From a virus, in the IMG/VR virus record IMGVR_UViG_3300043933_000129: a DNA stretch of 16,517 nucleotides; one strand, 5' to 3'. The position numbers were made by a program, and so were the translations under genes. A model generated the notes under the pieces. It ran no database searches and was not told the origin of the DNA. It saw only the letters and a program-made list of their open reading frames with translations. Position 1 is the first letter of the stretch; every line of letters starts with the position of its first letter. Shown piece after piece: positions 1-16,517 of the stretch.

Positions 1-33
1 GGGGTGGTTTCGAACGTCGAGATTTTCGGTACA
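1..33. repeat. Left inverted terminal repeat: 33 bp perfect, 41/43 if extended to nt 43. Starts 5'-GGGG.
   Basis: nt 1-33 are the exact reverse complement of nt 16485-16517, compared base by base. There are mismatches at 34 and 36, and 37-43 match again. Confidence 0.95.
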
Positions 34-51
34 ACACATGCACGCTATCAG

Positions 52-83
52 AAAAAAAAGAGAGTGATACAATAGTATCACCC
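52..83 (-). terminator. Rho-independent terminator ending the late (structural) operon
   Basis: Stem 62-70/75-83 has 9 bp and a 4-nt loop. The A63:C82 mismatch on the plus strand becomes a G-U wobble in minus-strand RNA. The stem is followed on the minus strand by U8 (plus-strand A-run 52-59). It lies 17 nt after the tail-fibre stop codon. Confidence 0.8.
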
Positions 84-10721: not shown

Positions 10722-12665
10722 TCACCTCATTTCATATGTCGTGTTCACCAGTAATACTCCGCCTTTAATTCTTTTTGGCAATAATTTTCCGGGAACACAT
10801 AAACCAACTTTAAAATCACTGTAGTCTCTTTTTGTTTCTAAGAATTTTAATTCGCTTTCTGTATAGTTATCACTCTCCTTTGCTTCATATCCCTGCATTG
10901 ATTTGTTAAATAAATCTTTACATTTCTGTGGCATGCCTGCACATTTAATATCATTATATGGTTCATCAACTGGAATTAAATCATGATGCGTTATGTGTTC
11001 TATATATGTTTTCTGTCTTGTAAATATAGCTGTATCCCAACTACTCTCAAGTTTCCAACAACAAAACTTTACTGGGTCAACTGTTATTCCTTTTATCTTA
11101 TCAGCAGGTAAATCACAATGTATACTGTCAGTATCAGCATAAATAAAACCCGCTTTGTCTACACCATAGTAATTTTTTTGAGCGGCTGTGATTGTAAAGT
11201 TACGTGCGTATGACGTTATTGCACTACCAGTTGCTATATGACCCACCTTTTTATTGTTAGCAGGGACTATATAAAATCCTATACTTCCATCATCTTTTAC
11301 ATATGCAACTTTAAAACTACTATTGGAACTACTAGCAATTTTACCATATAGATTATTGAGAAAAAGTTTTGCTTCTGTACGCTTTGCATATTTACTATTC
11401 ATTTTAATTTCTGCATAATGATTGATATAATTATCAAATATTCCTATAGCAGAATAAAACCAACACCCATCCAATATTTCAAAGTCTACAAGTTCATAGT
11501 GTTTTAGCATTAACTTATAATCTGTCATTGTTACTGTCATTATCTGTGCAGTATCTTTAATATTACCATTAATATCTTTATAGTATCTATTGTAGTTTCC
11601 ATTTTTATCTAATACATCACTAGTTGTTAATGACTCCGTGCCTTTATATAAATGATTACCCTTTATCTGGATGAATGGCAACATATTTTCTTTAATATAA
11701 AAGCGTGTTTTTATTCTTAAAAAATAATATTTATTTTCACCTATTGCTTCATTAGGTATTACATTACCAGTCCAAAAATATGGCTTACCTATTGGAAAAT
11801 AATTTCCACTTTCTGAGTGCATCATACTAGGATATAAAGAGTTTACATCGCCAGTTGTACCATTATATTTTACTTTATTTTCTTTTCCTTTTACTAAATA
11901 GCACCAGCCACCTCTATAGCTATGTCGTATATATTCATCAGCATTTGATGAGCCATAAATATTTTTATCAAGTATAAATTCATCAAGAGGAGGAAACAAA
12001 TCATTGTAGTCATAAGCACCCAATGAATTTTTATATTCTGCTATACAACAAGAACCTATTGTTAATTTATCATGTCCATCATTGAATAACTGTTCAAGTG
12101 CTTCTTTAACTACTAATACATCATTTGCTATATATTTCTTTTCTTTATCAGTTATATTGCAACCTGCATATCTATAGCCAATGTATTCCATATCTAATTT
12201 TTGATGTTTTGTTTTAAAAGATTTTCCTATTTGATATACTGAAAATGGTAATAACTTTAAACTATCTCTTAATTCGATAAAATGATTATTAACTTTAATA
12301 GTAATCATATACCATTGGCCCATTGAAGATATAATATATTTAAATGTATTATTTTTCATATATTTTTCTTTTATAAACTCGCCTTGTGTTCCGTCATTAT
12401 TAAATGACTCATATGCCTGTTCATATTTTAAATCTGTTAATAAATATGACAGCCAAAAATTTCCATCAAATTTAAGATTATGATAGTATGCTATTATGTC
12501 ACAATCTAATGACTTAAAATAATTAAACTGTTCATTTATAGAATGAAAAATATTAACATTTTCTGTGTATAATTCTACGGACGCACTCGCCCATACTTCA
12601 GTAGATTTTTGAGCCTCATATACTGTAGTTTCAAAATCACACATAAATTTTCTATAGTTTCTCAT
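10722..12665 (-). CDS. Protein-primed family-B DNA polymerase (phi29 gp2 type)
   Basis: 647 aa. The motifs, in canonical order and close to phi29, are:
- Exo I: DFETT
- Exo II: YHNLKFDGNF
- Exo III: YIANDVLVV
- YRGGW
- motif A: DVNSLYPSMM
- motif B: KLFLNNLYGKIAS
- motif C: YADTDSIH
- KxY: RQKTYIE. Confidence 0.97.
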   Translation of the reverse strand: MRNYRKFMCDFETTVYEAQKSTEVWASASVELYTENVNIFHSINEQFNYFKSLDCDIIAYYHNLKFDGNFWLSYLLTDLKYEQAYESFNNDGTQGEFIKEKYMKNNTFKYIISSMGQWYMITIKVNNHFIELRDSLKLLPFSVYQIGKSFKTKHQKLDMEYIGYRYAGCNITDKEKKYIANDVLVVKEALEQLFNDGHDKLTIGSCCIAEYKNSLGAYDYNDLFPPLDEFILDKNIYGSSNADEYIRHSYRGGWCYLVKGKENKVKYNGTTGDVNSLYPSMMHSESGNYFPIGKPYFWTGNVIPNEAIGENKYYFLRIKTRFYIKENMLPFIQIKGNHLYKGTESLTTSDVLDKNGNYNRYYKDINGNIKDTAQIMTVTMTDYKLMLKHYELVDFEILDGCWFYSAIGIFDNYINHYAEIKMNSKYAKRTEAKLFLNNLYGKIASSSNSSFKVAYVKDDGSIGFYIVPANNKKVGHIATGSAITSYARNFTITAAQKNYYGVDKAGFIYADTDSIHCDLPADKIKGITVDPVKFCCWKLESSWDTAIFTRQKTYIEHITHHDLIPVDEPYNDIKCAGMPQKCKDLFNKSMQGYEAKESDNYTESELKFLETKRDYSDFKVGLCVPGKLLPKRIKGGVLLVNTTYEMR

Positions 12666-14417: not shown

Positions 14418-14442
14418 AAATTATGAACATTTTATGAACTTT
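14418..14442. repeat. Tandem 11-nt direct repeat TTATGAACATT/TTATGAACTTT, within an 18-nt element shared with the right terminal region
   Basis: 14418-14435 (AAATTATGAACATTTTAT) matches 16348-16365 (AAATTGTGAACATTTTAT) at 17/18 positions. The repeat units are at 14421-14431 and 14432-14442. Confidence 0.9.
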
Positions 14443-14462
14443 TCCACATTTTGATTTACTGT

Positions 14463-15091: not shown

Positions 15092-15274
15092 TTATGCCCT
15101 TATAGTTATAACAAGAATATTATCATTCAATGTAATATTATAAACATGACTTTCATAGTACTTATAAGGTATATCTTTAAGTATACCGTTATATAAAATG
15201 GTATAAGTTCTAAAATTGTATAACTGTATGTATTCTACACCATGAATTATACTAAATAAATCTTGTAGTTTCAT
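15092..15274 (-). CDS. Hypothetical early protein (60 aa), paralog of 15352..15546
   Basis: The start is moved to ATG 15274, which follows AAAGGAGCTGAAAAAAGT. A gap-free alignment to the 64-aa neighbour gives about 14 identities in 44 positions, including R-T..IL..G...DIP..Y....V. Confidence 0.65.
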   Translation of the reverse strand: MKLQDLFSIIHGVEYIQLYNFRTYTILYNGILKDIPYKYYESHVYNITLNDNILVITIRA

Positions 15275-15325
15275 ACTTTTTTCAGCTCCTTTCATTCTTT
15301 GCTATATTCAATTGTAAAAACCTAT

Positions 15326-15351: not shown

Positions 15352-15546
15352 TTAGGATATAATTAATACAATCTCTGATATTGTCTTAGACAGTGCGCAA
15401 GACATAGCAACTGTCACATTATAATTTAAATATTCTAATGGAATATCACGAACTACCCCTTTCCATAATATTTTTTGTGTTCTTGCGTCCTGCAATACTA
15501 CTTTCTGATTATCAAAAAATACTCGATACAAACTTTCTAATAACAT
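15352..15546 (-). CDS. Hypothetical early protein (64 aa), paralog of 15092..15274
   Basis: The ORF follows TAGAAAAGAGGTGAAATAAT and starts 1 nt after the p6-like B stop codon. Confidence 0.65.
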   Translation of the reverse strand: MLLESLYRVFFDNQKVVLQDARTQKILWKGVVRDIPLEYLNYNVTVAMSCALSKTISEIVLIIS

Positions 15547-15875: not shown

Positions 15876-15923
15876 ACTGATATTACTATCAGTGATACAA
15901 GGGAGTCGGAGTTGCACCGACTC
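15876..15923 (-). promoter_or_regulatory. Two adjacent stem-loops upstream of p6-like gene B
   Basis: The perfect inverted repeat ACTGATA-TTAC-TATCAGT is at 15876-15893. A GC hairpin GAGTCGG/CCGACTC is at 15903-15923 and has the loop UGCAACU on the minus strand. No U-tract follows. Confidence 0.5.
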
Positions 15924-15930
15924 AACTATC

Positions 15931-16251
15931 TTAGATAGTCCAAAACTCTTGTCTTGTTTTTGTTATATATAGGTAACCGATTAATTCATCTACCTTATTA
16001 TACACCTCAATGCCTATTGTAAAAAACCTAACATTATATGATAATATTGTAAGTCTACCATAACCATAGCCAGAATTAGACTCATCTTTAAGTTCTGTAA
16101 GCCATTTATACCAGTCGTCATATATTTCTCTCTTTATTGAGCTACATTTGACATAGCAATCATTCAAAGTCCTATATTTCAAGTCGTGTACTTCAACTTT
16201 TAACTTTTTCATTTCAAAAGTCCTATTATTCAATTCTATATATTGTTTCAT
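15931..16251 (-). CDS. Hypothetical early protein (106 aa), first gene from the right end
   Basis: The track start at 16260 is the GTG of the RBS AAAGGTG. The ATG at 16251 (MKQYIEL...) has correct spacing. Confidence 0.65.
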   Translation of the reverse strand: MKQYIELNNRTFEMKKLKVEVHDLKYRTLNDCYVKCSSIKREIYDDWYKWLTELKDESNSGYGYGRLTILSYNVRFFTIGIEVYNKVDELIGYLYITKTRQEFWTI

Positions 16252-16260
16252 ACTATACAC

Positions 16261-16303
16261 CTTTAGTACTCTTTAAGTACCCCTTTCCTTTATCTTTAAG
16301 TAC
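16261..16303. repeat. Three copies of CTTTA(A)GTAC (minus strand GTACTTAAAG) in the leader of the first early gene
   Basis: The copies are at 16261-16269 (one A shorter), 16271-16280 and 16294-16303. A TATAAT on the minus strand lies immediately upstream at 16309-16304. Confidence 0.85.
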
Positions 16304-16336
16304 ATTATAAGGGTCAGATGTGAACAGCGTATGACC

Positions 16337-16365
16337 AAATTGTAAACAAATTGTGAACATTTTAT
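16337..16365. repeat. Tandem 11-nt repeat AAATTGTAAAC/AAATTGTGAAC plus the shared 18-nt element
   Basis: The units are at 16337-16347 and 16348-16358. 16348-16365 matches 14418-14435 at 17/18 positions. Confidence 0.9.
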
Positions 16366-16378
16366 ATGTTACTATAGT
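16351..16378 (+). promoter_or_regulatory. Possible outward-facing promoter near the right end
   Basis: TTGTGA (16351-16356), a 16-nt spacer, then TATAGT (16373-16378). A second set lies one repeat unit upstream: TTGTAA (16340-16345), 17 nt, then TATATG (16363-16368). ACTATAGT is palindromic, so the -10-like box also reads on the minus strand. Confidence 0.25.
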
Positions 16379-16410
16379 ACTAAGTTAGGCATAACTAACT
16401 TCGCGCACTC

Positions 16411-16506
16411 ACGGTACCACGCTGACGTGCTAACGCTGTACCACTGCAACGCGTCACCAGTTTACCACTGTGAAGTGCATGGGGTGTACCGAAAATCTCG
16501 ACGTTC
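16411..16506. repeat. Degenerate 24-bp tandem repeat x4 with an invariant TACC core, running into the right ITR
   Basis: GTACCAC is at 16414 and 16438, TTACCAC at 16462 and GTACCGA at 16486, so the spacing is exactly 24, 24 and 24 bp. Units 1 and 3 share 13/16 positions after the core start (TACCAC..TGA.GTGC). Confidence 0.85.
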
Positions 16507-16517
16507 GAAACCACCCC
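16485..16517. repeat. Right inverted terminal repeat
   Basis: Exact reverse complement of nt 1-33. Confidence 0.95.

Follow-up and report, generated by a model that had tools for sequence, protein, structure and literature searches.

A conserved array of phased 24-bp repeats is a probable auxiliary, variable part of the terminal-repeat origin in a phi29-like phage

The right end of the phage genome analysed here, a stretch of 16,517 bp that we refer to as the window, carries a phased array of 24-bp units that is real, statistically solid and conserved among relatives, and which we describe less as a property of one end than as an auxiliary, variable portion of the origin at the inverted terminal repeat (ITR). 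The best-supported single explanation of the array is that its units are phased binding and nucleation sites for the p6-like proteins of this phage, which would set the register of a nucleoprotein complex 33-104 bp from the end. To this reading of the sequence we give somewhat less than an even chance; p6 binding and everything downstream of it are what we infer.

The window is a complete linear genome with a G+C content of 31.9%, which gene order and similarity place with the phi29-like, protein-primed podoviruses. Its ends, 5'-GGGG, are formed by an ITR of exactly 33 bp (1-33 and 16485-16517), or of 43 bp if two mismatches are allowed. The closest cultured relatives are the Clostridium symbiosum phages CS229P1-3, with capsid DNA ~74% and DNA polymerase ~64% identical, while IMG/VR contains more than 150 relatives (154), 80 of which were compared and have DNA polymerases from 99% down to 65% identical to that of the window. 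Seven independent contigs stop at the same terminal base as the window's end, and in the closest relative (L026, DNA polymerase 99% identical) the sequence ...CCACCCC passes directly into Illumina adapter at both ends, so that the ends of the window are taken as real molecular ends; the adapter junction, seen in L026 and L084, confirms the physical right end. Contig ends in this phage group call for caution before use, as several IMG/VR contigs are chimeric or snap back at the palindrome CACTGCGCAGTG, or read through the ITR into the opposite end (L028 in its first 30 nt, L106, L111, L112, L116 and L120). Two further observations concern the early region of the window. Small early proteins of 67 aa (15092-15295, minus strand) and 64 aa (15352-15546, minus strand) are apparent paralogues (ILWKGVVRDIPLEYLNYNV and ILYNGILKDIPYKYYESHV), and neither has a family match in Pfam or PHROG. 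A weak Rfam match to Tymo_tRNA-like on the minus strand (15878-15960; E 0.045 and, at 26.8 bits, under the gathering score) crosses the boundary between the first early gene and p6b and can probably be put down to chance.

The array is recognized by four (G/T)TACC boxes starting at 16414, 16438, 16462 and 16486, which are spaced 24, 24 and 24 bp apart exactly as an earlier note on this sequence had read them. The same note had reported that units 1 and 3 share TACCAC..TGA.GTGC and that the last 117 nt contain 66 G or C bases, and both are correct, the latter amounting to 56% against 31.9% for the whole genome. It had also proposed a shuffle-controlled autocorrelation of the terminus, which makes the 24-bp periodicity significant: the lag-24 value of 16401-16517 is 0.44, compared with 0.255 +/- 0.046 in dinucleotide shuffles. 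Of 20,000 shuffles, one attains this value at lag 24, and 69 attain it when the maximum over lags 5 to 40 is counted. Lags 8 and 16 are likewise elevated. Equally spaced repeats arise in few of the shuffles, with a 4-mer present four times in 9 of 20,000 and a 6-mer present three times in 8 of 20,000. A repeat search returned a 28-nt unit three times, 24 bp apart, with identities of 61-71%; Tandem Repeats Finder left the array uncalled, as it is too degenerate. The boxes are identical between units and the spacers ~40-55% alike, and GTAC is enriched 8-fold in the terminal 257 bp. The segment is thus a degenerate array unified by a conserved box (Table 1).

Within the individual units, unit 2 contains a second box-like sequence, TCACCAG, 16 nt past its start (TCACCAC in relatives), while the centre of unit 3 is the perfect palindrome CACTGCGCAGTG in most relatives and its 3' part, GCATGGGGT, is a portion of a deeply conserved subterminal element. 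This local palindrome is the genuine symmetric element of the region in relatives; an imperfect inverted copy of 16405-16415 at 16467-16478, as previously suggested, comes down to merely 5+3 matching bases and an indel, is absent from the repeat-search output and is insignificant. Across 16403-16485 and the orthologous loci, most substitutions are CpG to TpG or CpA (CAACGCG to CAATGCG; TAACGCT to TAACACT), a pattern that would fit cytosine methylation followed by deamination.

Table 1. Features of the window that bear on the terminal array (positions in the 16,517-bp sequence)
Feature	Position	Strand	Details
Left ITR	1..43	+	33 bp exact, 43 bp with 2 mismatches; terminal unit only
Late-operon intrinsic terminator	52..81	-	Hairpin GTGATAC-N4-GTATCAC at 64-81, then T-run; adjoins left ITR
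DNA polymerase gene	10722-12665	-	Directly downstream of candidate terminal protein gene
Candidate terminal protein, 177 aa	12662..13195	-	By synteny, directly upstream of DNA polymerase gene
p6-like dsDNA-binding protein, paralogue a, 104 aa	13654..13968	-	phrog_6370, E 7.1e-6
p6-like dsDNA-binding protein, paralogue b, 93 aa	15548..15829	-	phrog_6370, E 2.5e-5
Early-promoter control region	16319..16379	.	Boxes TGTGAACA at 16319, TGTAAACA at 16341, TGTGAACA at 16352
7-bp perfect inverted repeat	16382..16401	.	AAGTTAG-N6-CTAACTT, just inside array
Array unit 1	16414..16437	+	GTACCAC GCTGACGTGCTAACGCT; 81-104 nt from right terminus; kept in ~30 relatives, fixed 24-bp register
Array unit 2	16438..16461	+	GTACCAC TGCAACGCGTCACCAGT; 57-80 nt from terminus
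Array unit 3	16462..16485	+	TTACCAC TGTGAAGTGCATGGGGT; 33-56 nt from terminus
Right ITR copy	16485..16517	+	Exact 33 bp; fourth box GTACCGA (16486) and terminal core CTCGACGTTCGAAACCACCCC-3'

Comparison of the termini of relatives, which the earlier note had called for, rests on an alignment of ~30 independent right ends from metagenomic relatives, and the exact 24-bp box spacing recurs in these ~30 ends. The number of right-end units ranges from 3 to 6, most clade A genomes having 4, L014 and L024 having 3, L026 having 5 and clade B having 5-6, and every larger length change is one of whole units. For example, unit 2 is absent from L014 and L024 and is replaced in L021 by a second copy of unit 1, and unit 3 is duplicated in the closest relative, L026; the small indels seen are confined to homopolymer runs in the terminal part of clade B, and each is of a single base. 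Among orthologues, the non-consensus rate in box columns is about half that in spacer columns (0.056 versus 0.120). The genomes that define this conserved phasing are close relatives, with DNA polymerases at least 88% identical, and among them phasing is weak evidence of selection, since replication slippage yields whole-unit indels anyway. The expectation of shared phasing holds, exactly, for these close relatives and fails for distant ones (60-69% DNA polymerase identity), which have no strict 24-bp array; these keep p6-like genes, and their GTACY motifs lie 22-23 or 31 bp apart, or GC-rich repeats of another kind are present, as in CS229P1. The presence of GTACY boxes near distant ends at other spacings indicates that the box is older than the strict 24-bp period.

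In most relatives the left end has units too, 2-6 of them, which separate the late terminator from the terminal unit, and the ITR of close relatives varies from 33 bp to more than 126 bp. In relatives the array therefore belongs to the ITR as its inner section, whose copy number varies, and is not a right-end peculiarity, and its presence at both ends in most of them identifies it as a terminal or origin element as opposed to part of a right-end gene or promoter. The window and its closest relative have a left end with the terminal unit alone, so that in the window the terminal 33-bp (43-bp) unit is repeated at both ends and the array units are not. The asymmetry of the two origins that the earlier note had deduced is consequently real in this genome, with its minimal left end, but is a strain-specific polymorphism, and the reason offered for it, that the left end has no room for an array, is contradicted by the 2-6 units that relatives fit into that very interval. 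The left junction of the window, ...GCGTGC|ATGTGTTGTACC, has the appearance of a longer array from which the stretch between two GTGC repeats was deleted. With two left ends lacking internal units, the array is evidently not essential at every origin.

A related lineage with DNA polymerase ~61% identical (L291, L311, L088, L093 and L094, contigs of ~14.3 kb) has adapter-confirmed ends of the form ...GTCGACGTTTTTCGAAATGGTATGCCTACT, and an ITR of ~55-60 bp that includes a GTACC-bearing hairpin; a single p6-like gene is detectable in it, and the 24-bp array is absent. The terminal sequence of that lineage (GTCGACGTTTTTCGAAATGGTATGCCTACT) lies internally in contig 069702, followed by the hairpin and the array. 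Scans with short or degenerate DNA patterns gave mostly chance matches and some useful complete contigs, L291 and L311 being examples.

While the array is common to the close relatives, the outermost sequence is not. The terminal ~30 bp (16487-16517 and 1-31) are of two unrelated types, type A ending ...TCTCGACGTTCGAAAC(C/G)ACCCC, also given as ...ACCACCCC, and type B ending ...GGTACCAAAAAACCGAAGTGAGTACCAGGG, also given as ...CCAGGG. All 13 genomes with type A ends encode a 177-aa protein at least 87% identical to the window's copy, and all 10 with type B ends encode an allele of that open reading frame (ORF) only ~30% identical to it. Terminus type and allele thus covary in 23 of 23 genomes (loci L003-L050), in which DNA polymerase is 88-99% identical throughout. 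The 177-aa protein has no family match in Pfam or PHROG, and this covariation supports its assignment as the terminal protein (TP). By the same comparison, the outermost ~30 bp appear to be matched to the TP, and the TP gene and terminus look like a swapped module. The 24-bp array is shared by types A and B, which implies that whatever reads it is not the TP allele. Together these patterns suggest an origin of two modules, an outer ~30 bp specific to the TP and the polymerase and, behind it, a common auxiliary array.

Other conserved elements lie around the array. One of them, (A/C)ATGGGG(A)AA(T)GG..TGTAC(C), is subterminal, ~35-45 nt from the end, at 16475-16490 in the window (GCATGGGGTGTACC), and is also present in the distant gut relatives L076, L054, L066, L001 and L311 (TAATGGGGAAATGGTGTACC). 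Among Bacillus phages, the right ends of phi29 (CAATGGGGAAATGGTGTATG), Nf/B103 and GA-1 have it as well (L382, L384, L385 and L381). It represents an unexpectedly deep conservation of origin-proximal sequence across phi29-like phages. The stem of the inverted repeat AAGTTAG-N6-CTAACTT is invariant among relatives and its loop variable, and the element is also found in the left-end repeat of two relatives; it may act as a hairpin or as an operator to which a dimeric protein binds. In the early-promoter control region, a plus-strand sigma-70-like match, TTGTGA-16-TATAGT (16351-16378), faces the terminus, with a -10 that varies among relatives (TATAGT, TATGGT, TATGAT or TATTGT), and a minus-strand TATAAT lies at 16305-16310. 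The boxes TGTGAACA and TGTAAACA (TGTTCAYA on the coding strand) occur at 16319-16359 and at 14421-14443, upstream of the -10s in both early intergenic regions, and their repetition suggests a common regulator of early promoters.

The statement that this genome encodes two p6-like proteins proved sound, on evidence from three methods. The phrog_6370 matches span the full length of both ORFs, a profile against which phi29 p6 itself scores 3.5e-40, and the two paralogues are 32% identical to each other (E 6e-9). As a homologue search with phi29 p6 as query gave a single protein, a reference alignment was built instead from annotated phage records, comprising eight Salasmaviridae and Enterococcus p6 proteins; hhalign matched the window-family profile to it with a probability of 95.8% (E 6.5e-9, 82 columns). 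The positions aligned to phi29 Arg6 and Ile8, residues of p6 that serve DNA binding and dimerization respectively (PMC4974454), are conserved in the window family. The AF2 model of paralogue a (pLDDT 75) finds phi29 p6 (8pw4_A) as the best of 350,542 PDB chains, with a Foldseek E of 1.4e-3, a TM score of 0.50 and coverage of the entire target. BLASTP against phi29 p6, Pfam (PF17548) and a PDB profile search gave no p6 match for either ORF, so that the homology is detectable by PHROG, hhalign and Foldseek only, and we take the two ORFs to be remotely homologous to phi29 p6. Genes for p6-like proteins, usually two, occur throughout this phage group. A 2024 review confined p6 homologues to Salasmaviridae and Enterococcus phages (PMC11476376), and the window paralogues, contrary to it, carry p6 homology beyond these. 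A link between p6b alleles and box variants was considered, as the unit-1 variants GTACTAC/T occur in three genomes that all carry a p6b allele of ~55% identity, and set aside because three genomes are too few to count.

The case for p6 as the reader of the array draws on what is known from phi29. Briefly, a phi29 p6 dimer covers 24 bp, 12 bp per monomer, and wraps DNA in a right-handed superhelix, and p6 stimulates initiation (PMC10899789, PMC4974454, PMC4150772). Its target is a 24-bp phased pattern of bendability as opposed to a sequence, and a concatemer of 24-bp units is favoured (PMC10899789, PMC4974454, PMC4150772). Nucleation positions have been placed 35-58, 46-68 and 62-125 from the ends (PMC4150772, PMC4974454), and promoter C2, close to the right end, is repressed by p6 (PMC4974454). 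The three units of the window occupy 33-56, 57-80 and 81-104 bp from its end, matching p6 nucleation in both position and period, and the sharing of the array by both TP and terminus types points to a reader other than the TP. A period of 24 bp amounts to ~2.3 turns of B-DNA and is therefore off-phase for the bare helix; it is in phase with a p6 complex of 12 bp per monomer. On this basis the array would be the inner ITR, or replication-origin, part in a protein-primed phi29-like phage of gut Clostridia, with units that start (G/T)TACC(A/G)C each receiving one p6-like dimer, possibly a p6a/p6b heterodimer. Phased dimers would fix the register of the wrapped nucleoprotein complex relative to the terminus, the wrapped complex would help to open the end and recruit the TP-polymerase complex, and at the right end it could spread over the adjoining early promoter. 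That a heterodimer of the paralogues reads an asymmetric 24-bp unit, in which KTACCRC makes up one half and a distinct ~CGYGC, 12 bp further on, the other, is a rather improbable refinement.

Other features of the array fit p6 less well. The array is GC-rich, which is unusual for the target of a minor-groove binder and counts against the p6 reading. No power at period 12 was found in W/S or R/Y composition, which are proxies and not a trinucleotide bendability model, and the lag-12 autocorrelation of 0.13-0.17 is below the shuffle mean, so a 12-bp compositional periodicity standing in for p6 bendability is absent. Among established p6 phages, 24 is the top lag at the left ends of Nf (L383; 0.46, P 0.001) and B103 (L385; 0.43, P 0.0145), where the source is one degenerate 24-bp duplication ~61-108 bp from the end (ACAGATGTAGTAAATTATAGGTAC and ATAGATGTATAAATATGCAGTTAC); the signal is absent from ~7-8 other p6-phage ends, namely both ends of phi29, GA-1 and Enterococcus Chl-5 and the right ends of Nf and B103. 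Set beside phi29-type p6 sites, the array agrees in gene, position and period and departs from 'bendability, not motif'. As position and period fit and an explicit motif stands where bendability would be expected, we place it outside the phi29-type class, as a variant.

The departure from bendability lends weight to a different reader. Each unit would then be an iteron whose KTACCRC box is bound sequence-specifically by something other than p6, be it a phage early protein, the DNA polymerase/TP complex or a host protein, on the model of the adenovirus NFI/Oct-1 auxiliary sites or of plasmid iterons. We regard this as unlikely overall, if a serious competitor. It would account for a signal that is an explicit conserved heptamer as opposed to a compositional pattern, for the 8-fold enrichment of GTAC and for a motif that, with GTACY boxes at other spacings near distant relatives' ends, predates the 24-bp period, and several early proteins have no family match and might supply the factor. 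Pfam, PHROG and PDB sequence searches found no candidate sequence-specific binder among the encoded proteins, however, and on B-DNA a 24-bp spacing would rotate successive sites by ~100 degrees relative to each other, a poor geometry for cooperative binding on one face. An HU/IHF-like early protein of 110 aa was considered as binder and dropped (Pfam Bac_DNA_binding E 0.095, with a PDB sequence search unsupportive). A reading of TTTACCACT as a DnaA box is also unlikely, as the box agrees with the consensus, TTATCCACA, at only 6 of 9 positions and is missing the T at position 4. The array may, on the other hand, have no function of its own, being a concertedly evolving repeat made by slippage in a long ancestral ITR, with an accidental length of 24 bp and any role of the ITR confined to end homogenization or panhandle pairing. 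The free variation of units, from 1 to 6 at either end among near-identical genomes, is what slippage would produce, and the arrayless left end of the window, the low unit similarity at the level of Tandem Repeats Finder, the spread of ITR lengths from 33 to more than 126 bp in close relatives and the different GC-rich ITR of ~100 bp in CS229P1 all agree with it. We nevertheless think this rather improbable, given that the boxes are identical across units though the spacers have diverged, that the terminal box and the adjoining ATGGGG element are conserved out to Bacillus phage ends, and that both TP/terminus lineages retain the array.

The surroundings of the right end raise two further accounts, each of which meets a difficulty at the left ends of relatives. 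The array could be mainly transcriptional, an upstream operator or silencer of the adjoining right-end early promoter acting as p6 does on phi29 C2, since it lies ~100-200 bp from the early-operon -10 and the TGTGAACA boxes and repression of an end-proximal promoter by p6 has a precedent (PMC4974454). Left-end arrays in relatives directly follow the late terminator, where there is no promoter, and the effect is better accommodated as a secondary consequence of p6 nucleation than as a replacement for it; as a primary role it is improbable. The GC-rich island, which stands out in an AT-rich genome downstream of a sigma-70-like match and has a modest fold z-score of -2.2, might alternatively encode a structured RNA, such as a pRNA-like packaging RNA, transcribed outward from the promoter-like 16351-16378. 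This we consider very improbable and have rejected: Rfam has no match in 16261-16517 even at E<=10, the RNAalifold covariation term is +0.16 with pairs broken in relatives, the fold z-scores are -2.2 and -1.6, units are freely gained and lost, the putative -10 is not conserved, and the array recurs inverted at left ends that have no promoter.

What the array means depends on which of these readings holds. After decades of study, a 24-bp phased bendability pattern in phi29 is still the only definition of a p6 nucleation site, and a natural origin that spells out this phase as an explicit repeated motif would give a clean substrate for defining p6-DNA recognition, all the more as a natural copy-number series of 1 to 6 units already exists in phages with two p6 homologues. 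Should the rather improbable heterodimer reading hold, these gut phages would have turned diffuse, bendability-based nucleation into explicit, sequence-encoded iterons that set the register of the filament, and each end would have its origin strength adjusted on its own by the gain or loss of whole units. If the array is instead neutral slippage, the finding shrinks to an ordinary ITR polymorphism. The modular origin, a TP-specific core with a common array, is suggested for a large uncultured group of gut Clostridia podoviruses.

Among known systems, the nucleation regions of phi29 p6 are alike in their position at the ends, their 24-bp period, the encoded p6 homologues and the early promoter that adjoins the right end. 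The phi29 ends have no repeated sequence (lag-24 values of 0.25-0.29), whereas in the window an explicit KTACCRC box, in true tandem duplicates, supplies the period, and the window's array is GC-rich, has no 12-bp sub-period, varies in copy number and is accompanied by two p6 paralogues in place of one. The ITR of CS229P1 is likewise GC-rich and ~100 bp long in an AT-rich genome; it differs in that its repeats are short and of GAGCG type, its strongest lags (10, 34 and 47) all fall short of significance, and KTACCRC boxes are absent. Plasmid and phage iterons are similar as direct repeats of ~20-24 bp with a conserved core and a variable spacer, adjoining an origin and varying in copy number, but they usually lie near two helical turns (21-22 bp), and the window encodes no Rep-type initiator and is protein-primed from its ends. 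In the auxiliary origin of the adenovirus ITR, an outer core fits TP and polymerase and an inner module serves other binders, a resemblance that the covariation of TP and terminus supports; adenovirus places two distinct host-factor sites, for NFI and Oct-1, behind its pTP-pol core, where the window has a phased tandem array in which no host factor is implicated.
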